In this document: one piece after another, positions 1 to 26,481 of the stretch
Layout: each line of letters begins with the position of its first letter
How positions within the stretch are numbered: the first letter of the stretch is position 1
Translations under genes and position numbers: made by a program
From: Candidatus Aerophobus profundus SCGC AAA252-L23
Lineage (GTDB): Bacteria > Aerophobota > Aerophobia > Aerophobales > Aerophobaceae
Length of the DNA stretch: 55,455 nt
Reading direction: 5' to 3'
Assembly (NCBI GenBank): GCA_000402295.1
Contig: AQRW01000190.1
Span: forward strand, 1 to 55,455
The notes under the pieces: generated by a model
The model's database searches: none
The model's input: only the letters and a program-made list of their open reading frames with translations
Told to the model about the DNA's origin: nothing

Positions 1-1140
1 GGTATTGTAGGAGAAGGAGAGGTTGCTATCGTGCAAATAGTGCGCGGTAAGCCCCCATCGATGGTTAAGGGAGCGCTATATCGTGAGCGAGAAAGAGTGA
101 GGTTTTCTGGAGAAAGAGAATTTATTAGCAATTTGGATGAGATTCCATTCCCGACATACGGAGGATTCAAACTGCAACAATACGGTCAAATCATGCAGTT
201 AGCTTCGTCCCGGGGCTGCCCTTACAAATGCATTTTTTGTGGAGTCCCCAGAATTCTGGGTAAGAGATGGCGTAAGAGGAGTGTGCGGGGCATGATGGAC
301 GAGCTTCAATATTGGTAAGGGAGGGGATACCGCAATTTCTATTTCAATGATAGTAATTTCGCTATCAACAAGACGAGGGTGCGCGATTTCTGTCAACAAA
401 TTACCGCACACAATCTAGATGCTTGCTTCACGGCTGATGGGTTGCGAGCTGATCATGTGGACCGCAAGCTTCTAGAGCAGATGCGACAGGCAGGATTTAC
501 CGCGCTTACCTTTGGTGTGGAGAGTGGCAGTAACAAAGTCCTACAGAACCTCAAGAAGGGGGAGACGTGTGAACAAATTGAGTCAGCCATAGCGGCCGCA
601 ACAGATTTGGGGTTTTATGTGACTCTTTTCTTCTTGATTGGTTCACCAGGGGAGGATGAACAGGATATCAGACAATCCTTCCGACTTGCTCGGAAATATG
701 AGGTAGAGAGGGTCTATTTCTTCAACCTGATGCCACTTCCTGGGACGGAGTTTTACCATTGGGCGGTCCAGCGAGGCTACTACATTGACGAAGCTGGAGG
801 AAGGTATTCGGAGAGTAATTTTGGTTTCTCAAATAAGGCGTTTCTAAGAACAGATGTGATGACAATAGACCAGCTGACCTGGTGGATAAAGCAGGCACGA
901 CGTGTCGAACGGCAAATACAATGGCGACACGACCTCCGACGAGATGTGCAAAGAGTCATGGGGAGAAAAATTCGCACCAACAACTTTTTTCTCAATGCTC
1001 TATCCTGGTATATAGTTTCCTCTCCTGGGTTTGCCGCTGTGCTTAGGTTGTTGGGACGCATCATCAATTTCGTTGCTTATACAGCCAGATCTTTTTGTAA
1101 TCTGGAACATTTGCCAGCGGGGGTGCAAGATGACCCCTGA
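1..1140 (+). pseudogene. B12-binding-domain radical SAM enzyme; 5' end lies off-window; interrupted by an in-frame TAA at 316-318
   Basis: Frame 1 is open from nt 1 (GIVGEGEVAIV...). The CxxxCxxC cluster motif SRGCPYKCIFC is present. After the TAA the same frame continues GRGYRNFYFNDSNF and GVESGSNKVL, which is radical SAM core. ORFs 31..318 and 379..1140 are in the same frame. Confidence 0.7.
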
Positions 1141-1867
1141 GATACTACGTGGTTGGGAGTATGCCCGTGCAGGTGACTACCACCGCAACTTGGATCCGAA
1201 TTGGTCCTATACTCCGACCTATTTGCGCAAAATGGCTTTTGTGCGGGAGTTTGTTGGATCACTATCAGATGATGTAAAGATTCTGGACGTTGGCTGTGGC
1301 GAAGGAGTTTTGGTTGAAGAGTTTCGCCGGAAAGGTAGGGAAATTGAGGGAATTGACCTGAACTACGAAAGCAAATTGGTGCAGCGTGGCGATGCCCGTC
1401 AGTTACCTTATCCTGACAGCTCTTTCAATGTGGTTCTGTTTCTGGATACGTTGGAGCACTTATCCTTTGAAGACCAGCCCAAGGCCCTTTCGGAAATATA
1501 CCGAGTTCTCAATCCGGGCAGCGATCTTCTCATGTCAGTTCCCAATCTCGCCCACTTAAATTCTCGTGTTCGTTTCCTCCTAAGAGGGTGTTTAGATCGA
1601 ACCGACATAGAAACAAACCATATAGGTGAGCGACCAATTCATGAATATGAGCGGCTACTGGAGCAACAAGGCTTTGTCATTATTGACGAGGTAGGTATAA
1701 CCTTAACGCTTTCCTTTGTCTACCGCCGAATAATTTGCCGGTCTCCTGCAAGATTCCGATGGCTACATGATGCTCTGGAACCCTTGGCAAGACTATTTCC
1801 AACGGTAGCAATGTTAACAATTTTTTCTTGCAAGAAGGGGAAGAAACCCTCTGTTCATGGGAAATGA
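1130..1867 (+). CDS. class I SAM-dependent methyltransferase
   Basis: Motif I is ILDVGCGEGVL, followed by LPYPDSSFNVVLFLDTLEHL and RVLNPGSDLLMSVP. The ATG at 1130 (MTPEILRG) overlaps the upstream gene end, so the ORF-track start at 1031 is probably too early. Confidence 0.8.
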   Translation: MTPEILRGWEYARAGDYHRNLDPNWSYTPTYLRKMAFVREFVGSLSDDVKILDVGCGEGVLVEEFRRKGREIEGIDLNYESKLVQRGDARQLPYPDSSFNVVLFLDTLEHLSFEDQPKALSEIYRVLNPGSDLLMSVPNLAHLNSRVRFLLRGCLDRTDIETNHIGERPIHEYERLLEQQGFVIIDEVGITLTLSFVYRRIICRSPARFRWLHDALEPLARLFPTVAMLTIFSCKKGKKPSVHGK

Positions 1868-3423
1868 ATACTCCAAGGAGGAAGCAGGTTATTAAACTTA
1901 GCAGGCATGCTGGAATATTTCAGATCTATACGCATCTTACAGAGCGTGAAAGGTTACTCCTGTTTGATCTAAGCCGGGGTTTAGATCAAAACCCAGTCGT
2001 CGTAGAGATTGGGAGTTATCTTGGTTCCAGTACCTGTTTCCTGGCAACTGGTGCCCGCTCAAATAATGGGAAGGTTTACGCTGTGGACACATGGACTAAC
2101 CTCGGTATGAGTGAGGGATCAAGAGATACTTGGGAGGAGTTTCTCTGTAACATCACACATCTTAAGAAGTGGATCGTTCCTTTGCGAGGATTGTCGGTGG
2201 AAGTAGCCCGACAATTCCGTGGCCAAATAAGTCTACTATTTGTAGATGGAGATCACTCTTATGAAGCAGTTCAAGCGGATTTGCAGACCTGGCTACCAAA
2301 GGTCAAAGATCACGGCCTTGTGGTTTTTCACGATTACAATTGGGCGGAAGGGGTACGCCAAGCGGTCAGGGAATGTGTTGTTCCTCTGCAAGTTGAGGGG
2401 GGGCATAGGCTAGACAGTATTTACTGGACACGGATTAGTCGCGACAGGAACGGGGTTGGTCGATCTGTCGTTCTCGCTTCGGTGATTGTACCTACCTATC
2501 GGCGTCCAGCGTATTTGAGGGATGTCTTAGTCTCGCTACTTAGGCAAGACTTTCCGCCCGAGCAATATGAAATTATCGTGGTAGATAATAAGCCCACCGG
2601 GGAAATTCGCGAGATTATTGAAGGACTTAAGCAAGAATGGGACCGACATGTAGGTTACGTAGAGGAGTCCAAGGTTGGTTTACACAACGCCCGTCACGCT
2701 GGAGCAAGGGCGGCACGAGGTGAGATCTTGGTCTACGTGGATGATGATGTCATCGTTCACCCGGATTGGCTTAGAGCGATATTGGAGCCCTTCCAGGAGC
2801 GGCTCGTGGCCGTAGTTGGCGGAGCAGTTTTGCCTAAGTGGGAAGCTGAACCCCCCGACTGGTTATCCCAGTCTATGCAAGGTTATTTAAGCCTACTCGA
2901 CCTGGGGAGGAACCGGCAAGAGCTAAAATACCCGGGGGGCGTTTATGGTTGCAACATGGCGATTAGGCGATCGGTGCTCTATGAAGTTGCCGGATTTAAC
3001 CCCGACGCAATGGGTGATCAGCGTTTGATTTGGTTCCGAGGGGATGGAGAAAGCGGGTTACACAAAAAGGTTTATGATGCTGGCTACAAAGTGGTTTACG
3101 AACCCCGTGCTTGGGTACACCATCGAATTCCTCCATCGCGGCTGAGGCCCGACTACTTCTGTTGGCGTGCTTATATCCAGGGGATTAGTGATTCCTACAC
3201 GTACCTGCGCGCAAATCGCTTATCCGGGGCCCAACTGCTACGACATGCTGGGCAATGCATGTTTGGGGGCGGCCGGGCCTATGCTCGTTTCATATGTGGT
3301 CCTGATTGGTCCATTCGATCGAGGATTAGAGTCTCTTATTGGTATGGACGAGCACAACATCAGCTACATGCCGTCTTAAGTCCTACGCTGCGATTCCACA
3401 TTTTGCAGGATAGCTATTTGTAA
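1864..3423 (+). CDS. fusion protein: N-terminal class I methyltransferase (Methyltransf_24-like) plus C-terminal GT2 glycosyltransferase
   Basis: N-terminal half: VVEIGSYLGSSTCFLA and LLFVDGDHSYEAVQADL...VVFHDY. C-terminal half: ASVIVPTYRRPAYL, YEIIVVDN, VYVDDDVIV (GT2 DxD region). The ATG at 1864 forms an ATGA overlap with the upstream stop. Confidence 0.75.
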   Translation: MNTPRRKQVIKLSRHAGIFQIYTHLTERERLLLFDLSRGLDQNPVVVEIGSYLGSSTCFLATGARSNNGKVYAVDTWTNLGMSEGSRDTWEEFLCNITHLKKWIVPLRGLSVEVARQFRGQISLLFVDGDHSYEAVQADLQTWLPKVKDHGLVVFHDYNWAEGVRQAVRECVVPLQVEGGHRLDSIYWTRISRDRNGVGRSVVLASVIVPTYRRPAYLRDVLVSLLRQDFPPEQYEIIVVDNKPTGEIREIIEGLKQEWDRHVGYVEESKVGLHNARHAGARAARGEILVYVDDDVIVHPDWLRAILEPFQERLVAVVGGAVLPKWEAEPPDWLSQSMQGYLSLLDLGRNRQELKYPGGVYGCNMAIRRSVLYEVAGFNPDAMGDQRLIWFRGDGESGLHKKVYDAGYKVVYEPRAWVHHRIPPSRLRPDYFCWRAYIQGISDSYTYLRANRLSGAQLLRHAGQCMFGGGRAYARFICGPDWSIRSRIRVSYWYGRAQHQLHAVLSPTLRFHILQDSYL

Positions 3424-3793: not shown

Positions 3794-5001
3794 GTGGCCA
3801 TTTTGTATGCGGAACTCCGTAAGTTATTTGATCATCGGCGCATAGCTATATTTGAGCCGCACCCTGACTTAGTGAGCAATGGAACGCTAGCTTGCTTACT
3901 AGAGGCTCTACTCTGCATTGATGCTCGCGCGGATGTACCTATGCCTGACAGCGGGAACTTTCCACCAATAGATGGTATGGTGACAAGGTATCCGTTTCCC
4001 CGAGCATTCTCGATCTGGTCTGGTGGGATTCGCAGTACTTTGGGTGGCTGGCGGGACTACGCGCAGCGTGTACGGATCGACCGGATGTTCGCGGCGGGAG
4101 CCTACGACTTGATTATTGGTGTAGATAGCAAGGGTATTATTGTAGGTTATCAATATGGCCACCGCTACAAAGTGTCGTTGGTGTATCTATGTTTCGAGAT
4201 TTTCTTTGGTGATGAATTGTCGGTGAGGGCTGAAATCGAGCAAAAAGAACACGACCGTACGGCTAGTCAGGCCGGAGATCTGATAATTGTTTCAGACCGT
4301 TGGTGTGCGAGTTGTTAGCCAATGAAAATGGTCTTTGGCCGGAGAAGTTCGAATATTTGCCAGTTGCTCCTGGAGGTTCTCGTAGAATTGCAAGATCTGG
4401 TTATCTGCGCAGCAAGTTTGATCTCTCCGAGGAACAGGTTATTGTCCTGCACTCGGGAAGTTTTGGCAAATGCACGTATGTAGAGGAGCTTCTGGAGAGT
4501 GTTACCTCTTGGCCAAAGAACTTTGTTCTGGTGGTTCATACTCGGTACCGTCCCAGTGCGAATAACGAGTATATTAAAGCAGTTCGGAGACTGAACTCAC
4601 CTAATGTTTTTCTGTCAACTACACCGTTATCTGCGGCTCAATATGAGCAACTGGTGGCTTCGGCGGACATTGGTCTTGTACTCTACAAGTCGATGCTATC
4701 ATCACCCTACACACAGAAGAATATCCAAGCTATCGGTTTGTCTTCGGGAAAATTCTCTTTTTACATGGAATACGGTCTACCAACTATTTCAATCGGTCAG
4801 GAAAGTTATGCGAGGTTACTCATGAATTATGACTTTGGTGAAAACTTGAATGAGTTTGCTGAGATGCCAGTAGCCCTAAATCGTCTACGGGTGAACTTGA
4901 ATCACCACCGGGTGGAAGCACAACGGCTATTCGCTGAAAAACTTGATTTTGACCAGCATCGGCTCAGAGTCTCAGCTCGCCTATCGGAACTTCTGAAATG
5001 A
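3794..5001 (+). pseudogene. GT-B fold glycosyltransferase split into two overlapping ORFs (3794..4318 and 4300..5001) by a 1-nt frame change
   Basis: The N-terminal ORF (RIAIFEPHP..., DLIIGVDSKG, AGDLIIVSDRW) and the C-terminal ORF (VCELLANENG..., VIVLHSGSFG, SSGKFSFYMEYGLPTIS) together mirror the intact paralog at 7329..8453. Both frames are open only across 4267-4318. Confidence 0.55.
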
Positions 5002-5441
5002 CCGTAAGTGATAATCCGCAGATCAGTAAACAACTTGGTAACAAGGCAGTTGAATACATCTGCTCGGGTGAGACTTGTTTGGCCTACGTTATCCGGGCGA
5101 GTTTTCTCCCAGAGAAGACTACCTTTTTGACCCCACCTGAGTACAAGCAACAGGTTGGCTACGTTGTTTATCCAGCAGGTGGTCAAATCCCACGTCATCT
5201 GCATCGTCCGCTAGAGCGTCGCCTCGTGGGGACTTCGGAAGTAATCACTGTCCGTCGTGGACGCTGCGAGATTGATATTTACAACAACTGTCGAGAATTG
5301 ATTGCTACCCGCGAGCTTGAGATAGGTGATGTGGTACTCATAGTGGACGGTGGGCATGGACTGAGGATGATAGAAGATACCGTGCTTCTGGAGGTTAAGC
5401 AAGGTCCTTACACTGGTTTGGACGAGAAGGAGCGTTTCTGA
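4998..5441 (+). CDS. cupin-fold protein (WbuC-like, glycan-cluster associated)
   Basis: 147 aa with a beta-barrel-like pattern: GYVVYPAGGQIPRHLHRP...VRRGRCEIDIY...GDVVLIVDGGHGLRMIEDT. ATGA overlap with the upstream gene. It sits directly before the DegT aminotransferase. Confidence 0.5.
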   Translation: MTVSDNPQISKQLGNKAVEYICSGETCLAYVIRASFLPEKTTFLTPPEYKQQVGYVVYPAGGQIPRHLHRPLERRLVGTSEVITVRRGRCEIDIYNNCRELIATRELEIGDVVLIVDGGHGLRMIEDTVLLEVKQGPYTGLDEKERF

Positions 5442-5443: not shown

Positions 5444-6565
5444 ATGATACCGGTCAACCAGCCGCTGCTCACTGGTAACGAGAAAAAGTACCTGAGGCAA
5501 TGTGTTGAGACCGGCTGGGTTTCCTCTGAAGGACCGTTTGTTAAGCGACTAGAGGAGCAATTTGCCAGGCGGGTGGGTCGTAGGCACGGTATTGCTGTCA
5601 ATAGTGGGTCTGCCGCTCTGGATGCCGCCGCCGCCGCGTTGAGTATCGGACCCGGCGACGAAGTGATCCTGCCGACTTTCACCATCATTTCGTGTGCGGC
5701 GGCTGTCATACGGGCTCGGGCGACACCAGTCCTGGTCGACTGCGATCCACAAACATGGAATATGGATGTGGGTCTAATTCAGGATAGGATTACCTCCAGA
5801 ACCAAAGCGATCATGGTGGTCCATATTTATGGTTTACCTGTGGACATATATCCAGCGTTGGTGTTGGCTGAAAAGCACGGGCTGCACGTAATTGAAGATG
5901 CCGCCGAGATGCATGGGCAGACATACAAGGGGCGTCCTTGCGGTAGTTTCGGTGACATAAGTACGTTCAGTTTTTATCCCAACAAACTGATGACCACGGG
6001 CGAGGGGGGCATGATCGTCACTGACGATGATGGTCTGGCTGACCGCTGTCGTTCTCTACGTAATTTATGTTTCCAACCGCACAAACGTTTCGTGCATGAG
6101 GAACTAGGCTGGAATCTCCGGATGAGTAACCTCCAGGCCGCTGTGGGTGTGGCGCAGTTGGAACAACTGGACCAGTCCGTCGTTCGGAAGCGGCGTATGG
6201 GACATCGCTACACCGAGCTGTTGACGGACGTACCTGGCCTGCAACTTCCGTTGTCACGCACCGACTATGCTGAGAACATCTATTGGGTGTACGGCCTGGT
6301 ATTGAGAGACGAGGTGCCTGTTGAGGCTGGAGCGGTGATGCGGTGTTTGGGTGAACGTGAGGTCGGCAGTCGCCCGTTTTTCTGGCCTATGCACGAACAA
6401 CCTGTCTTCCGGAGAATGGGGTTGTTTGGCGGGGAGTCCTACCCGGTTTCGGAACGCCTCGCTCGGCGCGGGTTCTATATTCCGAGCGGTCTTGCCCTGA
6501 CAGATAGTCAGATGGACCGAGTAGTGGAGACTATCGAAAACGTGATGAGGGAGATCATGCATTGA
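5444..6565 (+). CDS. DegT/DnrJ/EryC1/StrS-family PLP-dependent sugar aminotransferase
   Basis: Family hallmarks: PLLTGNEKKYL, AVNSGSAALDAA, VIEDAAEMHG, and the PLP-lysine context SFYPNKLMTTGEGGMIVT. Confidence 0.9.
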   Translation: MIPVNQPLLTGNEKKYLRQCVETGWVSSEGPFVKRLEEQFARRVGRRHGIAVNSGSAALDAAAAALSIGPGDEVILPTFTIISCAAAVIRARATPVLVDCDPQTWNMDVGLIQDRITSRTKAIMVVHIYGLPVDIYPALVLAEKHGLHVIEDAAEMHGQTYKGRPCGSFGDISTFSFYPNKLMTTGEGGMIVTDDDGLADRCRSLRNLCFQPHKRFVHEELGWNLRMSNLQAAVGVAQLEQLDQSVVRKRRMGHRYTELLTDVPGLQLPLSRTDYAENIYWVYGLVLRDEVPVEAGAVMRCLGEREVGSRPFFWPMHEQPVFRRMGLFGGESYPVSERLARRGFYIPSGLALTDSQMDRVVETIENVMREIMH

Positions 6566-7332
6566 CAGTTTTTAGCAATTATGCGCAATATTACGATTTG
6601 CTTTACAAAGACAAGGATTACCTTAGTGAAACGCGATATCTCCATCAGTTGGTTCAGAGCTGTCTGCCAGGGGCAGATTCCATTCTCGAGTTAGGCTGTG
6701 GAACCGGTGCTTACACGGTTATGTTGGCAGAAATGGGGTATGCAGTCCATGGAGTGGATTTGAGCTCTGAGATGCTTGTGCACGCAGAAAATCGAATGGG
6801 TGCAGTGAGACCTGAGTTAGCCTCAAGGCTACAATTCTCACGAGGAGATATCCGTAAGATCAGGATTGAGAAGACTTTTGATGCGGTGATCTCGACCTTT
6901 CACGTGATGAGTTACCTGACTGCGAATGAGGATCTGCGGGCGGTGTTCGTCACCGCCAAAGCCCATTTGAAACCGGGGGGCATATTCGTTTTCGATTGTT
7001 GGTACGGGCCAGCAGTGCTGAGCACCGGCCCGGCAGTGCGAGTCAAGCGTATGGAGAACGAAGAAATACGGGTGACACGCATAGCCGATCCTGTAGTCCA
7101 CCCTAATGAAAATTATGTAGACGTAAAATACGAGCTATTTATCAAACACAAGGACAACAGCACAATTGAGGAAGTTCGTGAGCACCATCGTATGCGTTAC
7201 TTCTTTGTACCCGAGATTAGAGAGTTATTTGCTGGCGCAGAACTGGAAATGATCGCCGCGTACGGATGGATGACTCATCAGGAGCCCGGGCTTGACACCT
7301 GGAGCGTTTGTTTTCTGGGAAAGCGGTTATGA
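6562..7332 (+). CDS. class I SAM methyltransferase with TylM1/DesVI-like architecture (candidate amino-sugar N-methyltransferase)
   Basis: YYDLLYKDKDYLSETRYL, ILELGCGTGAYT, VHGVDLSSEML, FDAVISTFHVMSYL and KPGGIFVFDCWYGP are collinear with my recollection of the TylM1/DesVI layout. TTG start overlaps the DegT stop (TTGA). Confidence 0.6.
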   Translation: MTVFSNYAQYYDLLYKDKDYLSETRYLHQLVQSCLPGADSILELGCGTGAYTVMLAEMGYAVHGVDLSSEMLVHAENRMGAVRPELASRLQFSRGDIRKIRIEKTFDAVISTFHVMSYLTANEDLRAVFVTAKAHLKPGGIFVFDCWYGPAVLSTGPAVRVKRMENEEIRVTRIADPVVHPNENYVDVKYELFIKHKDNSTIEEVREHHRMRYFFVPEIRELFAGAELEMIAAYGWMTHQEPGLDTWSVCFLGKRL

Positions 7333-8453
7333 CAAAGGTTCTAGTAGTTGGTTTCGAGCCATACGATGAAAGGATGTACCCACACACGTACGATGTCCTG
7401 AGGGTAATTGAGAACCATTGTGAGTTGGTCTATTTTGGCGGCGATGATCGCGGCAGCATAGGACATGTTCTCGGCCTTATGATGCCTAGGTCTCTTCATC
7501 CGCGCGTCTGGGCGCGGTTCCTTAAACATTACCTGCTCAGCAGTTACAAAATCCATAGAATACAGAGAAACATCCAAAGACTACTGAATAGTGACATAGA
7601 TACTGTGATTGCCATAGATCATTCCGCTTTACACTACGTCTGCAAATTTCTGGGCGAAGATACACGCCTTGTTTTTTGGTCTCAGGATCTATTCTCAAAA
7701 GACCATCTTTGGTTGGATTCATTTTGGGTTCGAAGGCTAGTCAAGGAAAATCAAAAGGACATAAGCAAATGTGACTCAATAATTGTGCAGGATGGAAATC
7801 GGGCTGCAGTGCTTGATTCCATCTTGAGAAGTCATGATATTCCCAAGTTTTATCTCCCTGTCTCGGTACGAGCGGACGCGTTTTCGGAAAATCAAGCTAA
7901 AAGGAGGCAGTCGCGGACATTTCAGGGGCGTGTTACGGTGATGCAGCTGGGGACTATTCATCGACAGAGGTCTAGTGATGTAATATTGGAAGCCTATCAG
8001 AAAATGCCAGACGACGTCCTACTGATCTTCAAAGGGTCCATCTCTGCTGATATGTATCCGCTGATTGACAAAGCGGCAAAGAAACCCCGCGTGTACCCCA
8101 AGAAAACCACACTGAAACCAATGCGTGAGACTATTAGTAAAGCAGATATTGGCATCATAGCATGCCGGTTGAAGAACCTCAACAATTACTTCTTCTCGAG
8201 GGCATCAGGTCAATTGATCGAATATCTCAGACTAGGAATTCCGGTCATAGTACTGGATATAGAGGAACTCGGTGAATTTGTGCAACGGAACAAATGCGGA
8301 TTGTCTTTGCCAGCTGTCAGTCAATTACAGCAGGCGATCTCAAAGATCGTCGGAGATTATGGTGACTATTCAAGATGCTCGTACGGCACTTTTCGCAGAT
8401 ACTTTGATATGGATCTATACAGAGAGAGACTACTCAACGAGATATTGTCATGA
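7329..8453 (+). CDS. GT-B fold glycosyltransferase (paralog of the split gene at 3794..5001)
   Basis: KVLVVGFEP N-terminal strand. The C-terminal half SRASGQLIEYLRLGIPVIVLDIEELGEFV parallels SSGKFSFYMEYGLPTISIGQESYARLL in the split gene. ATG at 7329 overlaps the upstream TGA. Confidence 0.65.
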   Translation: MTKVLVVGFEPYDERMYPHTYDVLRVIENHCELVYFGGDDRGSIGHVLGLMMPRSLHPRVWARFLKHYLLSSYKIHRIQRNIQRLLNSDIDTVIAIDHSALHYVCKFLGEDTRLVFWSQDLFSKDHLWLDSFWVRRLVKENQKDISKCDSIIVQDGNRAAVLDSILRSHDIPKFYLPVSVRADAFSENQAKRRQSRTFQGRVTVMQLGTIHRQRSSDVILEAYQKMPDDVLLIFKGSISADMYPLIDKAAKKPRVYPKKTTLKPMRETISKADIGIIACRLKNLNNYFFSRASGQLIEYLRLGIPVIVLDIEELGEFVQRNKCGLSLPAVSQLQQAISKIVGDYGDYSRCSYGTFRRYFDMDLYRERLLNEILS

Positions 8454-8517: not shown

Positions 8518-9311
8518 ATGCGGTATAATCATATCCATGGTCTTACGAAGCTTGTCAGGCGTGTCAAAAGAAGAACTGCTCGCTACCCTTTGCTACAATA
8601 TCTTGTCAACCAGAGATCCCGGCGCGAAGTACTAAAGTTCTACGGTCAGTTCATTAATCAAGGGGATTTGTGTTTCGATGTGGGGCAAATGTTGGAAATC
8701 GGACGGACGTGTTCCTTGCATTGGGTGCGCGGGTCGTTTGTGTTGAGCCTCAACCTAAGTGTTTAGCTATGCTGACCGAAAAATATCATAGGAATTCCCA
8801 AGTTATTGTGGTTCCAAAAGCAGTGGCGGCACAACCGGGCATCATGCCCCTTTATCTTTGTGAATCTGCAAGTACAATTGCTACTTTCTCTGAAAAGTGG
8901 AAGACTGGTAGATTTCGCGATTACAGCTGGGAGTCCATAGTGGATGTATCCGTGACAACCCTGGATATTCTGATGCAAAAGTTTGGAGTGCCCACATTTT
9001 GTAAGATAGATGTGGAAGGATTTGAATATCAGGCATTACAAGGTCTTTCTTCTTCAATTCCAATCCTCTCTTTTGAGTTCACAAAAGAGTTTATTAGTGA
9101 TGCTGAGCTCTGTATGGATTACCTGTCATCGTTGGGAGATGTTGAATTCAACTATGCATTAGGGGAGGCCCCGGTATTAGTCTTGTCTTGCTGGATTAAT
9201 GCAGATAAGTTGCTGAGTGGCTTGGGGCATATTGCAGACAACTTGTTATGGGGTGACGTATACGCGAGGTTTCATCCCTTACCAAGTGGGGCAAATGAAT
9301 CAACATGTTGA
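8518..9311 (+). pseudogene. FkbM-family methyltransferase, frameshifted at a GGGG run (8682-8685)
   Basis: ORF 8518.. ends its conserved part with FINQGDLCFDVG. ORF 8670.. continues in the next frame with GANVGNRTDVFLALGARVVCVEP. The canonical FkbM motif DVGANxG is restored only if one extra G is inserted. Confidence 0.75.
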
Positions 9312-15690: not shown

Positions 15691-15780
15691 AATTATGAGT
15701 CAAGTCTACCACTTTCGCTGGAAAAATTAAGCGTTGGTCTTGACATCAGTCATATTTCAAAGTGGTTTCTCAGCAGCCTC

Positions 15781-15936: not shown

Positions 15937-16202
15937 AGGACTCAGGAACGACAACCGGTTAATTGGTCTGGCCTGGGTGTCATTGGCTGTTTTCTTGTCC
16001 TTGCTGTCCATCTACGCTGTGGTGGACAATAAGCTACTTTTGGTCATGGTATTTGGAGTCCCCATTTCTCTCATCTTCTTTTTTCGCCCTCTATGGGGAT
16101 TGTACATACTCGTTGCTCTGATTCCCTTTCAACTTTTCCCAATGGCCTTCTTCGGTAGCCCATACACTTTCTCGGTGTGTCAGGTGCTGGTTAAGCTTCT
16201 AT
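15781..16202. repeat. right copy of the 422-bp direct repeat
   Basis: See 14175..14596. Confidence 0.9.
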
Positions 16203-19002: not shown

Positions 19003-19007
19003 AATCT

Positions 19008-20225
19008 ATGGGTGGAGAAACTTTTGATCTTATTGTCTACTTGGATGCTGACTGGGATACGCACGGGTCTCGTAATCGTCAGCATTTTCTGATTCGGGAA
19101 ATAGCTCATCAGGTTGAAGGTAAGGCAAAAGTCCTGGCTTTAGAAAGACCGATCTGTCCCATAACCGGTCCTTTCTTGCACCGCAGAAAATTCTTGAGTT
19201 GGGTGCCTTACCAAAGTGGGCTACGACAAGAAGGTACCGACTTATTTATCTATACGCCTTTCGTTCTATTGCATAATGTGCTGGCCAGCTTCGTTCCTGG
19301 ACTGACTGGCATAAACCGGAAACTTCTCAAATGGCAGATCGATTCCTTATTGCGGCGATTGGAATTCAAGCGAGATAATCTGATTGCCTGGATACACCAC
19401 CCCTACCAGTTGGAGGACGTCGGGTTGGTAAGAGAAAAGTTCTTGGTTTACGATTGCTACGATGATTACTTTAGTAATGTGGCTGGTCGACGGCTCATGG
19501 ACATGCGGAGGCGAGAAAAAGCCATCCTTGAATGTGCTAATATGGTGTTCGTGGCCTCACAAGAACTCCTCAAGAGGATGAGTGCCATGACAAAACAGAT
19601 ATTCTTATTGCCCAACGGAGCAGACGCCCGACTTTTTCATGAAGGTACGGACCCGGAAATCGCAGCTCCGGGTGAGATAGCCTCGTTGCCCCATCCAATC
19701 ATTGGTTTTGTAGGAAGAATAGCTCCGTGGCTAGATTTCAAGCTTCTTGCTGGGCTGGTAAAGCTTCATTCTGAATGGAGCTTCGTTTTCATAGGGAAAT
19801 GTGATACCGATAGAAAACTATCTAAGTGTCCTGAATACCAATTTTTGAAGAAGACGACTAATGTATATTTCTTGGGACCAAAACCACATAGGGAACTACG
19901 GGCCTATTTAAAGAAATTTGATGTGGGCATTATTCCATACCTTTTAGATGGTCAGGTTCCCTCCTCCTCGCCGCTCAAGTTATATGAGTACATGGCTGCA
20001 GGAAAACCTGTCGTGTCGGTAGATATACCTCATGTTTCCCGCTTCCAACCTCTTGTTCGTATTGCGAGTGGTGTTAGTGAGTGGGAGAAAGCCATACAGG
20101 ATGCCTTGTCTGATAACGATAATCTTGCTGAACAAAGACTCCAGGTAGCACGTGAAAATTCCTGGTCTGTTCGGGCCAAAGATGTGTTATGCATTCTTAA
20201 AGGTTTTTTGGGCGGTAACCCTTAA
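19008..20225 (+). CDS. GT-B glycosyltransferase (tandem paralog of 17785..19002)
   Basis: YLKKFDVGIIPYLLDGQVPSSSPLKLYEYMAAGKPVVS. Same length (405 aa) and collinear motifs. Confidence 0.7.
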   Translation: MGGETFDLIVYLDADWDTHGSRNRQHFLIREIAHQVEGKAKVLALERPICPITGPFLHRRKFLSWVPYQSGLRQEGTDLFIYTPFVLLHNVLASFVPGLTGINRKLLKWQIDSLLRRLEFKRDNLIAWIHHPYQLEDVGLVREKFLVYDCYDDYFSNVAGRRLMDMRRREKAILECANMVFVASQELLKRMSAMTKQIFLLPNGADARLFHEGTDPEIAAPGEIASLPHPIIGFVGRIAPWLDFKLLAGLVKLHSEWSFVFIGKCDTDRKLSKCPEYQFLKKTTNVYFLGPKPHRELRAYLKKFDVGIIPYLLDGQVPSSSPLKLYEYMAAGKPVVSVDIPHVSRFQPLVRIASGVSEWEKAIQDALSDNDNLAEQRLQVARENSWSVRAKDVLCILKGFLGGNP

Positions 20226-20230
20226 GATCT

Positions 20231-21217
20231 ATGAAGATTCTTTTTGTTCACCAGGGATTAATTTCATTTATTGCGAAAGACCTTGGGACACTACGCTTAA
20301 AACATGACGTAAAAGAGATTTGTTTTAGAGGCATTAAGGATATTCCTGCTGTCTGGGAAGGCACCGCTTGGTGCGATGTCACGTTTTCGTGGTTTGGTAA
20401 GTTGCATGCTTTCTTTACTGTCCTTTTCTCGAAGTTGCTGAGTAAAAAAACTATTGTCGTGGCTGGTGGTGATGACGTGGCTTACGATCCGGAAATAAAC
20501 TATGGTCTGTACTGCTCATGGTGGAAGAAGTGGTGTTCTTTATTCGTTTTTCGGTATGCTGATCTTATCCTGAATGTTTCGGAATTCAATCGAGGGGAAA
20601 CAATTAGGAATGCAGGGGTTGATTCGAATAAGGTGAAATTGCTCTATCACGGGTTTGATGATCAAAAGTGGCGAAAGATGGATGGGATATCGAAAGAATG
20701 CCTGGTTCTCACGGTAGGAAGGGTTACGGACGAGACCTTTCGTAAGAAAGGTCTCGAATTGTTCGTCCGCAGCGCGGCGTACTTGCCAGATGTACCATAT
20801 ATCTTAGTTGGCCCCTGGGAAGATAGGGCAATTGATAGACTGAAAGTCATTACTCCGTCCAATGTCGTCTTCGCCGGGGGTAGGTATGGTGAAAACTTGG
20901 TACAGATGTACAGCCGAGCGAAGGTGTATGTGCAGGTGTCGCGTCACGAAAGTTTCGGCTGTTCTCTGGCTGAAGCCATGCTTTGTGAGTGCATTCCGGT
21001 GGTATCCAGCCGAGCAGCAATTCCAGAAGTAGTAGGAGATTGTGGGTTTTATGTCGATACGTTGGAACCAGAGGCGATAAGTCAAAAAATCAAGGAGGCT
21101 CTGGATGCGCCAATTGAACTGGGCAAGAAGGCTCGGGAGAGAATCATCACTCATTTTCCCTTGGAGAGACGGAGAAAGGCGTTACTCGAGTTACTAGGCC
21201 TGATCGCGAAATCATGA
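20231..21217 (+). CDS. GT4 family glycosyltransferase
   Basis: VSRHESFGCSLAEAMLCECIPVVSSRAAIPEVVGDCGFYV (EX7E region). Confidence 0.8.
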   Translation: MKILFVHQGLISFIAKDLGTLRLKHDVKEICFRGIKDIPAVWEGTAWCDVTFSWFGKLHAFFTVLFSKLLSKKTIVVAGGDDVAYDPEINYGLYCSWWKKWCSLFVFRYADLILNVSEFNRGETIRNAGVDSNKVKLLYHGFDDQKWRKMDGISKECLVLTVGRVTDETFRKKGLELFVRSAAYLPDVPYILVGPWEDRAIDRLKVITPSNVVFAGGRYGENLVQMYSRAKVYVQVSRHESFGCSLAEAMLCECIPVVSSRAAIPEVVGDCGFYVDTLEPEAISQKIKEALDAPIELGKKARERIITHFPLERRRKALLELLGLIAKS

Positions 21218-22101
21218 TACCGAAAGCAACAAGAACCATGAGCAAGCATAGGTGTAGCCTTTGTGGCAGGCCAACGACTCGGTTGGGTACAAGTTCCTTT
21301 TATACTGCTAAAGGAGTCATAGAAACCGAAGTTTATCATTGTTGGCGATGTAACCTAGCTTTCAGAAACTTAAACTACGGCAACAAACAGGTGCAAAGCC
21401 ATTTTTACGTGGCCTCCTACGCTAACATAGACGGAGAGAGGAAATGGCTTGACCAACGAGGGGCATTCTATTCCTCTTGCCAAGAACTCCTTAGTAAATA
21501 CTTGGATGACCCTATGGTCAAACTTTTGGATGTGGGTTGTGGTTTGGGGCATTTCCTGGACGTATGCTGGGCGAAAGGTTGGCAGGTGAAAAGGATCGAG
21601 CTAAATGAGGAGCTTGTAGAATGGCATCGGAAAACCAAGCCATATCCTGTTGAGAGTGTAGATATCCTATATCTCGCTGAGGAAGAAGCGTATGATACGG
21701 TAACATTCATTGATAGTTTATACTATTGCGAAGATGTTTTCTCGGCACTTTGCAAGGCCAGGGGTTTACTCCGGCGCGGCGGTATTTTGTTCCTAAGGGT
21801 TGGCAACGGGAATATTTGGCGTGTGCTCTATTGGCTATCGCAGAGGATTCTTGGGAGAAACTCCAAGATTCCCTATATTATTGACGGAGATGCGAAGTGG
21901 GGTTTTTCAAAGAGAAGCATAAAAAAGTTACTCGCAAGATGTAGTTTTAAAATCATTTACCTTGGGGGAATGGAGAAAAGTAAGATCACAGGACAACTAG
22001 ATAAATACCTGTTTTATAAGATTACTCAAATCATAGAGAAGATGAGCTTTGGCCTGATTTCTCTTACCCCAGGATTAATTATAATAGCAAAAAAACAATG
22101 A
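21214..22101 (+). CDS. class I SAM methyltransferase with N-terminal Cys4 zinc ribbon
   Basis: CSLCGRPT...CWRCNLAF followed by LLDVGCGLGHFLD and GGILFLRVGNG. Same layout as 25567..26481. Confidence 0.75.
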   Translation: MIPKATRTMSKHRCSLCGRPTTRLGTSSFYTAKGVIETEVYHCWRCNLAFRNLNYGNKQVQSHFYVASYANIDGERKWLDQRGAFYSSCQELLSKYLDDPMVKLLDVGCGLGHFLDVCWAKGWQVKRIELNEELVEWHRKTKPYPVESVDILYLAEEEAYDTVTFIDSLYYCEDVFSALCKARGLLRRGGILFLRVGNGNIWRVLYWLSQRILGRNSKIPYIIDGDAKWGFSKRSIKKLLARCSFKIIYLGGMEKSKITGQLDKYLFYKITQIIEKMSFGLISLTPGLIIIAKKQ

Positions 22102-23249
22102 TGGAATTACTTTTCTGGCTATTTGTAGGAATTACTATTTACGTCTATTTTGGTTATCCGTTACTGTTAATCATAGTGGCTAAGATCAGTAACCAATCAG
22201 TAAGAAGAGCTAACATTACTCCGTCCGTGACTATGATTATTGCTGCTCATAACGAGGAAAAGTCAATTCATCGTAAGCTTCAAAATTCCCTAAATCTCGA
22301 TTATCCTAAGGATAAATTAGAAATCATAGTTGCCTCGGATGGCTCCACGGATAAGACAAACGTAATTGTTGGAAAGTTCAAAGACCAGAGAATTAGATTG
22401 GTCTATGACCCTATACAGAAAGGGAAATCCTCAATTCAAAAGAAAGCTGTGGAAAATGCTAATGGAGATGTTATAGTATTCACAGATGCACCTACGTTGC
22501 TGGATAGCAATGCTTTGTCAAAAATCGTTAGGCCCTTCTATGATAAAACGGTGGGATGCATCATGGGAAAAGCAAAGAATATAGATATATCTGAAACCTC
22601 TGTGTCCGAGGCTAATAATTTATATAATCTCTATGAGGAATTCCTCCAGAAGAAAGAGAGCCAAATTGGATCACTTGCAATGGGATCTGGCTGGCTGTTT
22701 GCTACCAGAAAAAACTTAATTGAGCCCTTAGACATCAATGTTGGAGATGATTTTGTTATTCCGTTGGGAGTTGTAGAAAAAGGATTCAAGGTTATTTATG
22801 AACGCAAGGCTATTTCATACGATAGGGGACACATTGAAACGAAAGCTATGTTTAGGGCAAAATACAGGGTTGTTACTAAAGACCTTAGAGGATTGTTTTC
22901 AAAAAAAGTGCTACTGAATCCAATACGGTTTCCTTTAGTTTCCTGGAGTCTAATCTCCCATAAGCTATTAAGGTGGCTCATTCCTTATTTTTTGATAGTA
23001 GTGCTCATTTCGAATTGTTTTCTGTTAAACATCATTTTTTACCAAATAACCTTTGCTCTTGAAGTCACTTTTTTGTTGTTATCCCTTGTCGGATGGATAT
23101 TACAAAATAAAGGAATAAAGGTTAAAGTCTTCTATATTCCTTTTTACTACTGCCTTGTCAATCTGGCGGCGCTAATTGGGGTAGCTGCTTCCTTTTTGGG
23201 CAAAAAAATGGGGCATTGGACACCCGACAGGTACACCTATTATGGGTAA
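22098..23249 (+). CDS. membrane-anchored GT2 glycosyltransferase (synthase-like topology)
   Basis: N-terminal TM helix, VTMIIAAHNEEKSI, EIIVASDGSTDKTN, VFTDAPT, and a C-terminal cluster of TM helices. Confidence 0.8.
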   Translation: MMELLFWLFVGITIYVYFGYPLLLIIVAKISNQSVRRANITPSVTMIIAAHNEEKSIHRKLQNSLNLDYPKDKLEIIVASDGSTDKTNVIVGKFKDQRIRLVYDPIQKGKSSIQKKAVENANGDVIVFTDAPTLLDSNALSKIVRPFYDKTVGCIMGKAKNIDISETSVSEANNLYNLYEEFLQKKESQIGSLAMGSGWLFATRKNLIEPLDINVGDDFVIPLGVVEKGFKVIYERKAISYDRGHIETKAMFRAKYRVVTKDLRGLFSKKVLLNPIRFPLVSWSLISHKLLRWLIPYFLIVVLISNCFLLNIIFYQITFALEVTFLLLSLVGWILQNKGIKVKVFYIPFYYCLVNLAALIGVAASFLGKKMGHWTPDRYTYYG

Positions 23250-24414
23250 GGTATTTGTGACAGACGCCGCAGATAGGATTTCCCTTGCGATAACCAGATC
23301 CTTGGGACGAAAGGGGATCGAAGTGACTGTGGGGGACAGCAGGAGGGTTTGCCTTTCTCGTTTCTCAAAATACTGCAAGGGATCTGTTCTCTATCCCTCT
23401 CCTAAGAGATATCCCCGAGAATTCCTCGGTTGGTTGAGAAATCACTTGAGAGATAATAAATATAATGTCCTTATCCCGGTAGATGATATACCCCTATTGA
23501 TTATTTCTAAAAACAAAGAGGAGCTTTCTCAATTTTGCAAGATTCCGGTAGCTGATTTTGAAACTATAATGAAAGCACGCAACAAGAAAAGGACTATCGA
23601 AATTGCTATGAAACACAATATTCCTTGTCCTAAAACATATTTTGTTGAACACCTTCATGAACTGAGACAACTCTCGAAAAATATTGATTTTCCTGTTGTG
23701 ATAAAGCCGCAAGAAAGTTCAGGGGCAAGGGGGTTGACTTACGTCAGAAATAGCGAGGAATTGCTTCCGAAGTATCTTGCGATTCACAAGCACTATGAGT
23801 TACCCTTGATACAAGAGCTTATTCCACCTGGTGCTCCGAAATACTGCTTTTCAACCGTATTTGATGGAAAATCTGAGGCAACGGCTGTGTTTACACAGGT
23901 TGCCTTTAGATGGTTTGGTGGGGCAACTACATTCTCGCTAGGAGTTGAGAGCGGCTTTGCTTCGATCATTGAGAGGTTGAGTGTCAAATTGTTAAAGGTA
24001 ATTGAGTGGCGGGGCGTAGCAGAGGTAGAATTTCTGATTGACCCCCGTGATAATACACCGAAACTCTTGGAAGTGAACCCCCGTTTTTGGTCCTGGGTTC
24101 AACTTGCAGTATCCTCAGGTGTGGATTTCCCATATCTATTGTATAGAATGACCATGGAGGAAGAAGTAATGCCTATAACCCAATGTCAAACTGGGGTCAA
24201 ATTCAAGTGGCTACTTCCTGGCGACATATTGGTTTTATTGGGTCTTGGGAATAGATTTAGGGCTAATTTGGCGAATACTCATTGCAAGAAAACTGTTTAT
24301 GCTATACTTTCCAAGGATGATCCAAAACCAGCCTCTGTTTTTATAATAAGCATGATAACATCTCTCCTACAGAGGAAAATCACCTGTGGACAAGGTCAAA
24401 GAATATTGGGGTAA
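23242..24414 (+). CDS. ATP-grasp domain enzyme (carboxylate-amine ligase-like)
   Basis: FPVVIKPQESSGARGL, WRGVAEVEFLIDPRDNTPKLLEVNPRFW. Confidence 0.8.
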   Translation: MGKVFVTDAADRISLAITRSLGRKGIEVTVGDSRRVCLSRFSKYCKGSVLYPSPKRYPREFLGWLRNHLRDNKYNVLIPVDDIPLLIISKNKEELSQFCKIPVADFETIMKARNKKRTIEIAMKHNIPCPKTYFVEHLHELRQLSKNIDFPVVIKPQESSGARGLTYVRNSEELLPKYLAIHKHYELPLIQELIPPGAPKYCFSTVFDGKSEATAVFTQVAFRWFGGATTFSLGVESGFASIIERLSVKLLKVIEWRGVAEVEFLIDPRDNTPKLLEVNPRFWSWVQLAVSSGVDFPYLLYRMTMEEEVMPITQCQTGVKFKWLLPGDILVLLGLGNRFRANLANTHCKKTVYAILSKDDPKPASVFIISMITSLLQRKITCGQGQRILG

Positions 24415-24468
24415 TAAAGGCCTTGTTGGGGGTGGACCCCGCAGGATTTTTGGCTAGAAAGGTTAGAG

Positions 24469-25344
24469 ATACTCAAAATTAAGCTGAAAACCTCACTTAT
24501 CAATATCCTCACCATTGATGTCGAGGATTGGTATGCGTCCAGTTTAGCTCTTCTTAACGGGCCAAACTCGGTATACGGGCAGCGGCCTGCTGGGAGTGTT
24601 GTAGGAAACGCGAGAAGAGTCCTCAAAATTCTGCAAGAATATAGTTGTGAGGCAACTTTTTTTGTGCTGGCGACGGTAGCAGAGCACTATCCGGACTTGG
24701 TTAGAGAAATTCATGATGCCGGTCACGAGATTGCTACCCACGGCTACGCTCATCGGCTGGTCTACCGAATGAGACCAGAAGAATTTGAGGAAGATCTGGT
24801 TAAGTCCCTGAAATTGATTGAGAATGTTATTGGGGAAAAGGTAGTTGGGCATCGGGCCGGATACTTCTCGATCACGAAACAGTCACTCTGGGCCCTGGAT
24901 ATTCTGGCCAAGCATGGCATCAAGTACGACTCGAGTATTTTTCCCATTCGCCGGAGACTTTATGGGATTCCTGACTTTCCCCGCTTTGTCTCTCAAGTAA
25001 GAAGTAAAGGGAGATACGGACTTCGGGAGGTTCCGCCCTCCACGGTTCGGATATGGGGTCAGAATGTTCCTATCGCCGGTGGCGGCTATCTTCGCGTTCT
25101 TCCGTATTGGGTAATCAAACAGGGAATCAGGAGGGTTAATGCCCAGGGACACCCCGCGGTGATCTACCTGCACCCTTATGAGCTTGATCCCCAGGATATT
25201 AAAGTGCCAGGCGTTTCGCTCGGGTGGGGAACACGGTTTACCCAGCTCAGTCAACGATTCAATCGCTCGACGTTTGAAGGGAAACTAAGAAAGCTTCTCC
25301 GGGACTTTAAATTTGGCTCGGTACGAGAGGTGCTGGATTTGTAG
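24469..25344 (+). CDS. polysaccharide deacetylase (DUF3473 / XrtA-associated type); start codon uncertain
   Basis: The conserved N-terminus NILTIDVEDWY (from 24505), ATFFVLATVAEHYP and GHEIATHGYAH lies upstream of the first canonical start (GTG 24664). The frame is open from 24418 with only ATA 24469, ATT 24478 and CTG 24484 as possible starts. Confidence 0.7.
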   Translation: MLKIKLKTSLINILTIDVEDWYASSLALLNGPNSVYGQRPAGSVVGNARRVLKILQEYSCEATFFVLATVAEHYPDLVREIHDAGHEIATHGYAHRLVYRMRPEEFEEDLVKSLKLIENVIGEKVVGHRAGYFSITKQSLWALDILAKHGIKYDSSIFPIRRRLYGIPDFPRFVSQVRSKGRYGLREVPPSTVRIWGQNVPIAGGGYLRVLPYWVIKQGIRRVNAQGHPAVIYLHPYELDPQDIKVPGVSLGWGTRFTQLSQRFNRSTFEGKLRKLLRDFKFGSVREVLDL

Positions 25345-25486: not shown

Positions 25487-25566
25487 ATCGGGCATGTCTA
25501 TCTCTCTCTGGATGACAGTGAGGGCGGAGTGGGAATGCCGAGGAGACAAGATTTTGAAAATGAGGA

Positions 25567-26481
25567 ATGAAGCTTAGACAAATAACATGTGACATCTGTG
25601 GAAGTGGTAATGTGGAGGTTGTGGGTAAACCGCCAGTCGAAGAAAGACTCAGAACGAGATTTCCCCAATTGAGTGAAACCTCGGTGGTCCGGTGTACCAA
25701 CTGTTGCTTCTACTTTGTCAGCCCAACGCCTTTCTTTAGCAAAAGCGAATTAAAGTTCATTTACGACCAGACCTATTTCAAAGCATCGGTCATGACTGAC
25801 TGGTGGAGAAAAAGGAGAGTCAGGGACAGAATTTGTCGGTTAGACGCTATCGAGCAAATGAGCTCACCGCAAGTGAGAAAGCTTTTGGATGTTGGTTGTG
25901 GGGAGGGCTGGGTTTTGTGGGAAGGCCAGAGGCGAGGATGGGAGGTGTGGGGTGTAGATGTATCAAATAATCTGGCGGATCCTCTAAAAAGTAAGTTTGG
26001 TGAAAGACTGGTCATTGGAAGGCTGCCAGAAGTGGGGTTTGCATCTGAATCCTTCGACGCGATCTATATGGATTCAGTTTTGGAACATGTTCCGTCCCCT
26101 ACCTCCATGATGAGGGAGTGTTACCGGATACTCCGTAGGGGGGGGTGCCTCTATGTTGGAGTTCCTAACGAAGACAGCCTGATGAACGAGGTGAAAAGGT
26201 TACTTTGCAGTGCAAAAGGATATGGGGCGTCGTCACGGTTGAATCCATTCAGGAACCCTTACCACATTGCTGGATTCAATAGAGGTTGCTTTACGAAAAT
26301 GGCTGAAAAACTGGGCTTCCGGGTTGAGAAAATTAGAATTTTCGGCGGACATTATGAGTTTTTGAAGTATAGGTCAGGTTGGACAGTTTTTGGCAAGTTG
26401 TTGTTTCATTCTACCGTACACGCGGTGGGCCTGTTGTTTGGGAAAGGGTTTTACATTCAGGCCTGGCTGATAAAGGAATGA
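25567..26481 (+). CDS. class I SAM methyltransferase with N-terminal zinc ribbon
   Basis: CDICGSG...CTNCCFYF, LLDVGCGEGWVLW, FDAIYMDSVLEHVPSP, GGCLYVGVPNE. Confidence 0.8.
   Translation: MKLRQITCDICGSGNVEVVGKPPVEERLRTRFPQLSETSVVRCTNCCFYFVSPTPFFSKSELKFIYDQTYFKASVMTDWWRKRRVRDRICRLDAIEQMSSPQVRKLLDVGCGEGWVLWEGQRRGWEVWGVDVSNNLADPLKSKFGERLVIGRLPEVGFASESFDAIYMDSVLEHVPSPTSMMRECYRILRRGGCLYVGVPNEDSLMNEVKRLLCSAKGYGASSRLNPFRNPYHIAGFNRGCFTKMAEKLGFRVEKIRIFGGHYEFLKYRSGWTVFGKLLFHSTVHAVGLLFGKGFYIQAWLIKE

Follow-up and report, generated by a model that had tools for sequence, protein, structure and literature searches.

Relatives of the locus and its layout

Glycan loci are known mosaic hotspots, and methyl, sulfate and acyl decorations of their products are known as well. 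In the ATP-binding cassette (ABC)-dependent O-polysaccharide systems of Escherichia coli O8/O9a, WbdD serves as a methylating terminator together with the carbohydrate-binding domain of Wzt, and in exopolysaccharide loci of the XrtA/PEP-CTERM type a FemAB-type protein is the usual partner of the deacetylase. Here we analyse a glycan region (positions 1-26481) of contig AQRW01000190.1 from Candidatus Aerophobus profundus SCGC AAA252-L23. The window is the complete deposited contig of 55,455 bp, so the DNA beyond either end cannot be read. A sequence-only reading had described the region as one glycan locus unusually rich in modification enzymes, making a heavily methylated, possibly sulfated and amidated polysaccharide with an unclear export route. 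The description of its enzymes is fair, all eight methyltransferase (MT) calls having Pfam support, but the single coherent pathway with a puzzling export step is not supported: there are about four damaged genes, and the exporters lie beside the homologous genes in relatives. The region is probably a mosaic of at least two ordinary glycan modules, joined by recombination and partly decayed.

Related loci were compared by tblastn. In Brocadiaceae genomes (L008-L010) and in GCA_964345005 (L011), Wzx/Wzy loci show the order also found here: a Wzy_C gene, three or four glycosyltransferase (GT) genes of the GT1/GT4 type and a terminal MT, at 41-62% amino acid identity. The Brocadiaceae loci run Wzc, UDP-glucose dehydrogenase (Ugd), MT, Wzx, FkbM MT, Wzy homologue, four GTs, MT and toxin-antitoxin genes. 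L011 runs Wza, Wzc, Wzy_C-TPR, Wzx, Wzy homologue, GTs and two MTs, after which come a membrane GT2, DegT and a PglF-like dehydratase; this dehydratase, homologous to the one in the window, lies directly 3' of the Wzy/GT/MT/GT2/DegT block. In the window, the Wzy gene, three GTs and the last MT (15869-21217 and 25567-26481) match L008-L010 at 41-62%, the last MT (41% identity) being a homologue of the terminal MT there, and the membrane GT2 gene (22098-23249) matches L011 at 45.5%. Toxin-antitoxin genes (DUF433/DUF5615) mark the downstream border here as in the relatives. Unlike them, the window has no Wzx, Wzc or Wza; the upstream genes and a sulfotransferase cassette fill the place that Wzx has in the relatives, there are six additional MT-type domains, and the genes for the dehydratase and phosphoglycosyltransferase stand 17 kb away.

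The upstream genes have other affinities. Positions 1-7332, holding a radical S-adenosylmethionine (SAM) gene, an MT24-GT2 fusion, a cupin, an aminotransferase and the next MT, match a Desulfocapsa metagenome-assembled genome (MAG; L001, DYDL01000205.1) at 53-58% and JAVZDD010000011.1 (L002), labelled Candidatus Nanoarchaeia archaeon, at 39-51%. In 1-26481 the + strand carries all credible genes, which overlap by 4 nt or are separated by short gaps; GC content is lowest in the membrane GT2 gene (37%) and highest in the aminotransferase gene (55%). Of the 26 genes, about four are inactivated, and one further open reading frame (ORF) is a truncated duplicate. These affinities and the GC mosaic go some way towards several unrelated small operons, the outcome that the earlier reading had named as fatal to it.

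The region reads as follows.

1..1140, + strand: radical SAM gene, B12-binding type, 5' end lost at the contig start (both fragments match Pfam Radical_SAM)
1130..1867, + strand: class-I SAM MT (Pfam Methyltransf_23, 71.6 bits; also Methyltransf_11)
1864..3423, + strand: bifunctional Methyltransf_24 (TylF-like O-methyltransferase; Pfam 92.4 bits) followed by GT2 (110 bits)
3794..5001, + strand: GT-B-type glycosyltransferase, split into ORFs 3794..4318 and 4300..5001
4998..5441, + strand: small cupin, weakly WbuC-like (NCBIfam TIGR04366, 27.4 bits, cut-off 42)
5444..6565, + strand: DegT-family nucleotide-sugar aminotransferase (Pfam 366 bits)
6562..7332, + strand: MT, nucleotide-aminosugar N,N-dimethyltransferase-like (Methyltransf_25, 72.7 bits; also Methyltransf_12/11)
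7308..8453, + strand: probable GT-B glycosyltransferase, weak (Glyco_trans_1_4, 24.3 bits, cut-off 27)
8518..9311, + strand: FkbM MT (Methyltransf_21), frameshifted (54.1 bits over 8670..9311)
9305..10048, + strand: DUF268 protein, MT-like (DUF268 39.2 bits, threshold 25)
10045..10824, + strand: class-I SAM MT (Methyltransf_11, 50 bits)
10955..11977, + strand: Glyco_trans_1_2 glycosyltransferase (Pfam)
11965..12963, + strand: GT2 glycosyltransferase (Pfam)
13110..14330, + strand: GT4 glycosyltransferase (Pfam)
14172..16202, + strand: sulfotransferase cassette, its gene bracketed by a 425-bp direct duplication
14794..15690, + strand: sulfotransferase, divergent Sulfotransfer_3 / NodH-like (homologues, profile, AlphaFold model)
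15869..17578, + strand: Wzy_C-family membrane protein (Wzy_C 36.2 bits, cut-off 31.7; ~14 hydrophobic segments)
17785..21217, + strand: three GT1/GT4-type glycosyltransferases (Pfam), syntenic with the Brocadiaceae loci at 45-62% amino acid identity
21214..22101, + strand: class-I SAM MT (Methyltransf_23, 43 bits)
22098..23249, + strand: membrane GT2 (GC 37%), four hydrophobic segments, of which one is N-terminal and three are C-terminal
23242..24414, + strand: ATP-grasp ligase (Pfam, NCBIfam)
24478..25344, + strand: polysaccharide deacetylase, XrtA-system type (Polysacc_deac_1 and DUF3473)
25567..26481, + strand: class-I SAM MT (Methyltransf_11, 68.9 bits), carrying a G8 tract at 26138-26145

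Module A (1 to ~14330) would comprise the radical SAM gene, the MT with the MT24-GT2 gene, a cupin/aminotransferase/N-methyltransferase cassette and further MTs and GTs. Module B (15778-26481), with Wzy, three GTs, the deacetylase and the final MT, would be the distal part of a Wzx/Wzy-type locus; it appears to come from a standard system of that type because the Wzy homologue of the relatives sits in Wzx/Wzc/Wza loci. Within it, the MT, membrane GT2 and ATP-grasp ligase would form a low-GC insert. The sulfotransferase cassette, with its 425-bp duplication, would have been inserted between modules A and B, and 17 kb of toxin-antitoxin and insertion sequence (IS) material would have come between module B and the initiating phosphoglycosyltransferase and 4,6-dehydratase (43799-47008).

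Disrupted genes

The radical SAM gene is a pseudogene. Its ORF has an in-frame TAA at 316-318, within a well-aligned block in which relatives carry Tyr (two, 67-77% identity) or His (L001); from Tyr, this is a single-base nonsense substitution. ORFs 3794..4318 and 4300..5001 are halves of one GT-B gene broken by a frameshift near 4296-4305 (three-frame translation), the second half aligning with residues 198-388 of the 399-amino-acid L002 GT. In the FkbM gene, judged from the expected motif, 1 nt is deleted near 8674 inside DVGANVG, apparently turning G5 into G4; because of this frameshift the length of 8518..9311 is not a multiple of three, and on its sequence the gene should be a pseudogene or non-functional. 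The deacetylase may also be inactivated: the open frame starts at 24418 and the match to the family profile at codon 24502, with no ATG, GTG or TTG upstream. An ATT at 24478 is a possible start and would give MKLKTSLINILTIDVEDWY. In this contig the seven MT reading frames other than FkbM are intact.

The window was also compared with Logan assemblies of runs SRR3952011 (assembly L005) and SRR3952014, whose contigs are 100% identical to it over 2706-14204 and 16173-24760. The GT-B and FkbM splits recur in the separately assembled L007, within 100%-identical stretches. The sole difference between Logan and the window is G9 against G8 at 26138-26145; the last MT is in frame here (G8) and out of frame in L005, where G9 splits it into 200 and 99 amino acids. 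This could reflect phase variation, population heterogeneity or a homopolymer error. We do not claim phase variation from one such difference, and we estimate that chance alone would give ~0.7 G8 tracts in 55 kb. With several genes disrupted, the encoded chemistry may not all be expressed. Since inactivation affects the radical SAM gene, one GT and the FkbM MT, and possibly the deacetylase too, today's product is probably less elaborate than the gene list would suggest.

Predicted chemistry and export

In the hidden Markov model searches that the sequence-only reading had proposed as a check, its methyltransferases were not reassigned and its domain counts proved right: all eight regions match class-I SAM MT-type Pfam models. 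Seven exceed the gathering threshold of a Methyltransf_* model; 9305..10048 passes DUF268 only (Methyltransf_11 17.5 bits, cut-off 21.2), with MT motifs visible by eye. Module A holds six of these domains and module B the other two. No other locus in the small set compared has as many (the Brocadiaceae locus has three and L011 two), and the high count results from the joining of modules. Dense glycan O-methylation recalls the mycobacterial methylmannose polysaccharide (MMP) and methylglucose lipopolysaccharide (MGLP) pathways, but MMP clusters are small and cytoplasmic, without Wzy or lipid-carrier initiation.

The product of 1130..1867 is homologous to the N-terminal domain of fusion proteins of 750-765 amino acids with the architecture MT+MT24+GT2, so this MT and the MT24 and GT2 domains would form one functional unit; by eye, its motifs are those of the N-termini of P0204 and P0205. 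The MT24+GT2 architecture is widespread (1405 representatives at E<1e-30), and large MT/GT fusions dominate the list of homologues. The only PDB sequence match of the MT24 domain in 1864..3423 is 6g7d, over ~57 residues, which is presumably the mycobacterial MeT1 1-O-methyltransferase.

The best NCBIfam matches of the radical SAM gene are all B12-binding families (HpnJ, MJ_0865 and PhpK types, all far under their cut-offs), and from these best relatives it appears to be of the B12-binding type, as the sequence-only reading had it. The cluster motif CPYKCIFC, which has the CxxxCxxC form, lies 5' of the in-frame stop. The contig start corresponds to residue 126 in the L001 homologue, so an N-terminal cobalamin-binding domain would lie off the contig. 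In L001 (877-3831) a B12-type radical SAM domain, MT24 and GT2 are fused as one ORF of 985 amino acids, and the association recurs in P0214, a different fusion of 1001 amino acids with GT2, MT24 and a C-terminal radical SAM domain.

The L001 fusion ORF directly follows the 3' part of a gene for a Wzt-like ABC ATPase whose C-terminal extension is long. This ATPase and the multi-domain MT-GT proteins give module A a suggestive resemblance to parts of ABC-transporter-type systems, and suggestive only, because two further radical SAM relatives from a metagenome scan (67-78%) have glycosyltransferases or an aminotransferase upstream, not exporters. The window differs from the ABC-dependent O-polysaccharide systems in having no Wzt by Pfam or tblastn and no Wzm-type permease by Pfam on the submitted ORFs; no WbdD-like kinase domain was seen, and a link to chain termination would be conjectural.

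The aminotransferase (5444..6565) is closest, over its full length, to the GDP-perosamine synthase of Caulobacter (PDB 3bn1/3dr4, E = 4e-87). The next gene, 6562..7332, overlaps its stop by 4 nt and has DesVI, TylM1 and CalS10 as its closest solved relatives (DesVI 3bxo, E = 1.2e-22 over residues 6-225; 3pfg, E = 1.9e-16); its product is probably a nucleotide-aminosugar N-methyltransferase and not a polymer O-methyltransferase. At least one of the eight MTs would thus act on a nucleotide sugar. The cassette suggests an N-methylated 4-amino-4,6-dideoxyhexose nucleotide sugar. An aminotransferase followed by an overlapping DesVI/TylM1-like MT is also the pattern of desosamine/mycaminose-type pathways, but here it stands in a surface-glycan locus, not a macrolide cluster, and no nucleotide-sugar 4,6-dehydratase adjoins it in the window, whereas L002 has one. 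The cupin-aminotransferase-MT trio is kept in L002, preceded there by a short-chain dehydrogenase or dehydratase; the cupin adjoins the aminotransferase in L002 too and is present at the cut end of L001. The cupin may conceivably be an FdtA/Tyl1a-type 3,4-ketoisomerase; it has no PDB sequence match, and its single-sequence AlphaFold model was too poor for a fold search (predicted local distance difference test score, pLDDT, 43).

In L002, whose record assigns it to a DPANN archaeon, the cassette of cupin, aminotransferase and N-methyltransferase occurs with separate MT24 and GT2 genes at 39-51% identity; either a glycan module has moved between domains of life or the contig was misbinned. A tentative idea, to which we give only a small chance, is that module A is a cross-phyla cassette (Desulfocapsa MAG, Nanoarchaeia-labelled MAG and metagenome contigs) in which the radical SAM protein and the double MT-GT2 protein act as one unit on a lipid-linked glycan with an N-methylated perosamine-like sugar, modifying it by radical chemistry such as C-methylation. 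To our knowledge, and in a literature search, neither chemistry is described for surface polysaccharides of bacteria. The radical SAM member of the unit is already inactivated in this genome.

The sulfotransferase-like call was borne out through homologues and a model fold, although at E <= 0.01 neither Pfam nor NCBIfam has a family that 14794..15690 itself matches. PF13469 is found in its homologues of 37-50% identity (JGI name NodH), and across 21 homologues G76, R77, G79 and S80 are invariant and T78 nearly so, a GRTGS loop that we read as the putative 3'-phosphoadenosine 5'-phosphosulfate (PAPS)-binding loop. The family profile matches the NodH structure PDB 9vki (E = 4e-4), and the AlphaFold model (pLDDT 87) has Stf0 (E = 8e-6) and other sulfotransferases as top Foldseek matches, with modest TM-scores of 0.47-0.57. 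On either side of the gene lies a direct duplication of 425 bp (14172-14596 and 15778-16202), ungapped and 93% identical, which looks like the footprint of cassette insertion or unequal recombination. Copy 1 encodes a 146-amino-acid truncated duplicate of the Wzy N-terminus (14263..14703), and the short-read assemblies end within copies of the repeat.

The earlier figure of about ten glycosyltransferases also stands: ten were counted, of which eight exceed Pfam thresholds and two (3794..5001 and 7308..8453) are weak. The ATP-grasp call (Pfam and NCBIfam) and the deacetylase call (Polysacc_deac_1 and DUF3473) stand as well. The deacetylase matches TIGR03006, the deacetylase model of XrtA/PEP-CTERM loci, end to end (profile positions 1-271), but at 272.1 bits it falls 4 bits under the cut-off of 276.2, and it adjoins the ATP-grasp ligase instead of a FemAB-type partner; no exosortase or PEP-CTERM gene was found among the scanned ORFs of the window. 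Conceivably, deacetylase and ligase could de-N-acetylate and then re-acylate an amino sugar.

As the sequence-only reading had reported, the window contains no recognised exporter: Wzx, Wzz/Wzc, Wza and Wzm/Wzt were not found by Pfam on its submitted ORFs of >=100 amino acids, nor were remnants of Wzx, Wzc, Wza or Wzt by tblastn with the relatives' proteins, Wzm not being among the queries. These tblastn queries matched only at 49643..50425, where an unrelated ABC ATPase of import type aligned through its nucleotide-binding domain; it is part of the only ABC system in the window (47504-50425), which has import-type BPD_transp_2 permeases. The Wzy_C protein (15869..17578) is a probable polymerase. 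The membrane GT2, previously put forward as an export candidate, lacks support in that role: direct reading of its sequence found no canonical QxxRW, and PgaC/NodC synthase models match residues 28-162 only, at ~55-62 bits against cut-offs of 422-550. A small initiating phosphoglycosyltransferase (46373..47008, Bac_transf 185 bits) lies 20 kb downstream of the locus. Most simply, the exporter is missing from the window because of the contig end and rearrangement, not as a matter of biology.

Domain identities, disruptions, duplications and synteny come from the tool results themselves; from them we infer substrates, order of steps, export route and expression. A lipid-linked oligosaccharide would start on undecaprenyl phosphate and be extended by up to about ten transferases. 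The chain would receive O-methyl groups at several positions and perhaps sulfate; removal of N-acetyl groups and re-acylation by the ATP-grasp ligase may also occur. The glycan would then be flipped, polymerised by Wzy and exported, with Wzx, Wzc and Wza encoded elsewhere.

Were the region instead one intact pathway, it would make a single heavily methylated, sulfated and amidated polysaccharide and export it unusually, through the membrane GT2 as synthase-exporter or through Wzy alone. The single strand with short gaps or overlaps would suit this, as would the reality of all eight MT-type domains and a membrane GT2 with four hydrophobic segments and an N-terminal part resembling PgaC, IcaA and NodC. 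Four genes are disrupted, however, sequence affinities and GC content are mosaic, the contig ends inside the first gene, and the homologous Wzy and GT2 genes of the relatives stand in standard Wzx/Wzc/Wza loci; the synthase matches of the GT2 are partial and far under cut-offs, with no QxxRW. We regard this pathway as unlikely. That the apparent pseudogenes are sequencing or assembly errors, leaving the locus fully intact, is quite improbable. The G8/G9 difference between assemblies does show that homopolymer errors or heterogeneity occur in these data, but neither frameshift lies in a long homopolymer (one is in a G4 run, the other in none), both fall within 100%-identical stretches of separately assembled runs, the radical SAM nonsense codon is a substitution and not an indel, and the remaining contig is likewise rich in gene fragments.

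Two further explanations concern what the enzymes serve. The best-known B12 radical SAM methylases belong to antibiotic pathways, and the nearest solved relatives of the N-methyltransferase are the antibiotic sugar enzymes DesVI, TylM1 and CalS10, so the radical SAM protein, aminotransferase, N-methyltransferase and ATP-grasp ligase might serve a small-molecule pathway (aminoglycoside-like or glycolipid). We consider this very improbable: in L001 and L002 the cassette sits among glycosyltransferases, in L001 beside the Wzt-like ATPase; ten glycosyltransferases, Wzy and a phosphoglycosyltransferase are present; and no aglycone-forming genes (polyketide synthase, nonribosomal peptide synthetase, cyclitol) were found in the window. 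Protein O-glycosylation, for example of an S-layer, is a doubtful alternative. The Wzy_C domain is common to WaaL and PglL enzymes, so the Wzy_C protein could be a PglL-like oligosaccharyltransferase or ligase, with the ten transferases building one long methylated oligosaccharide; the genes for initiation belong to the PglF and PglC types. Module B's closest named relatives, moreover, are anammox Brocadiaceae, and in that nearest named group Kuenenia stuttgartiensis has an unusually and extensively methylated S-layer O-glycan, for which no genetic locus was defined (PMC5088730). Against this, the Wzy_C homologues adjoin genes for the Wzc tyrosine-kinase co-polymerase and Wza, serving polysaccharide export, the window yielded neither an S-layer gene nor a glycosylation target, and among named relatives of GpsA the closest is a Ca. 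Aerophobetes protein (60%), not an anammox one.

Several points also weigh against a mosaic of recombined, partly decayed modules. Its boundaries rest on a handful of related loci, and sequence similarity of 40-60% does not fix substrates. Tightly packed genes on one strand with many 4-nt overlaps are also the look of a single functional locus, and promoter and terminator scans gave counts at chance level, so any operon structure is putative. The Logan assemblies may share a culture, enrichment or reads with the deposited contig, the TAA at 316-318 lies outside their coverage, and the ATT-start gene or the split genes could still be partly functional.

Neighbouring genes and significance

Two features follow the glycan region.

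26482..43798, no strand assigned: 17-kb island of toxin-antitoxin pairs, gene fragments and IS21 (at 35806..38105)
43799..47008, + strand: initiation module with a PglF/CapD-like 4,6-dehydratase (43799..45700), a VanZ-like protein and Bac_transf (46373..47008)

The island is very dense in toxin-antitoxin genes. By Pfam, it holds HicA/HicB pairs at 26823-27321 and 32699-33153 and further HicA or HicB matches at 28553-28765 and 31589-31822; pairs at 40403-40865 and 41290-41706 are HicAB-like by eye only. DUF433/DUF5615 genes lie at 27537-28189 and 38195-38742 (the partner at 38195..38422 being outside the scan), and such a pair also borders the homologous Brocadiaceae locus (L008 17665-18284). 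AbiEii is found at 34227-34994 and a CopG-type antitoxin at 42747-43082. The IS21 element consists of a transposase (35806..37365) and istB (37362..38105). Directly 5' of the transposase gene is a 24-nt tandem repeat (TGGTAAACAGAAATCC...) at 35638-35808, an isolated second copy of whose block occurs at 28414-28536.

Pieces of the glycan region recur in the island. The 3' end of the deacetylase is duplicated (24990-25387 and 29088-29486, ORF 29095..29442 being a DUF3473 fragment), as is the sequence 3' of the last MT (26536-26824 and 29673-30095), the MT gene itself missing from the copy; these duplications are 84-92% identical and lie 3-4 kb apart. Within the second, both copies of a repeat (26646-26824 and 29917-30095) encode a short N-terminal fragment, YKNPPLI(E/D)AVFEIRFPAEL. 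A 191-bp repeat at 28224-28414 recurs at 40900-41090.

Beyond the initiation module, adjacent ABC permease genes (BPD_transp_2; 47549-48524 and 48632-49607) share 88% DNA identity, which points to a recent tandem duplication. An intergenic element of ~200 bp with GC-rich hairpins occurs at 47321-47518, 5' of the ABC permease operon, and at 55148-55382, 3' of the pyruvate formate-lyase gene (82-98% identity). The latter (52684-55116) encodes a full-length pyruvate formate-lyase / glycyl-radical enzyme of 810 amino acids, with no activase before the contig stops, and points to an anaerobic lifestyle. Transfer RNA and Rfam scans of the window for integration sites and riboswitches gave no match. 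A cyanobacterial origin, to which the abundant toxin-antitoxin genes and repeats had pointed, was rejected: HIP1 sites number 0 in 55 kb, and the relatives of GpsA are metagenome proteins (95% and 80%), with Ca. Aerophobetes (60%) as the nearest named one. Matches to Brocadiaceae and Scalindua had suggested an anammox origin, which was not established, as the identities are only 41-62% and GpsA disagrees. A plasmid origin was rejected, a megablast of 1-25000 against PLSDB being without match.

An exporter missing from a contig-sized window should not be taken as biology, and in principle the region adds little that is new. It does offer a clear case of modification genes accumulating by cassette insertion, in the sulfotransferase between its 425-bp duplicated ends, and it illustrates the decay of glycan loci. 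It also yields testable ideas about enzymes, namely an N-methylated perosamine-type surface sugar and a recurrent unit of radical SAM, MT and GT2; the radical SAM fusion and the possible N-methyl-perosamine cassette are better pursued in intact homologues.

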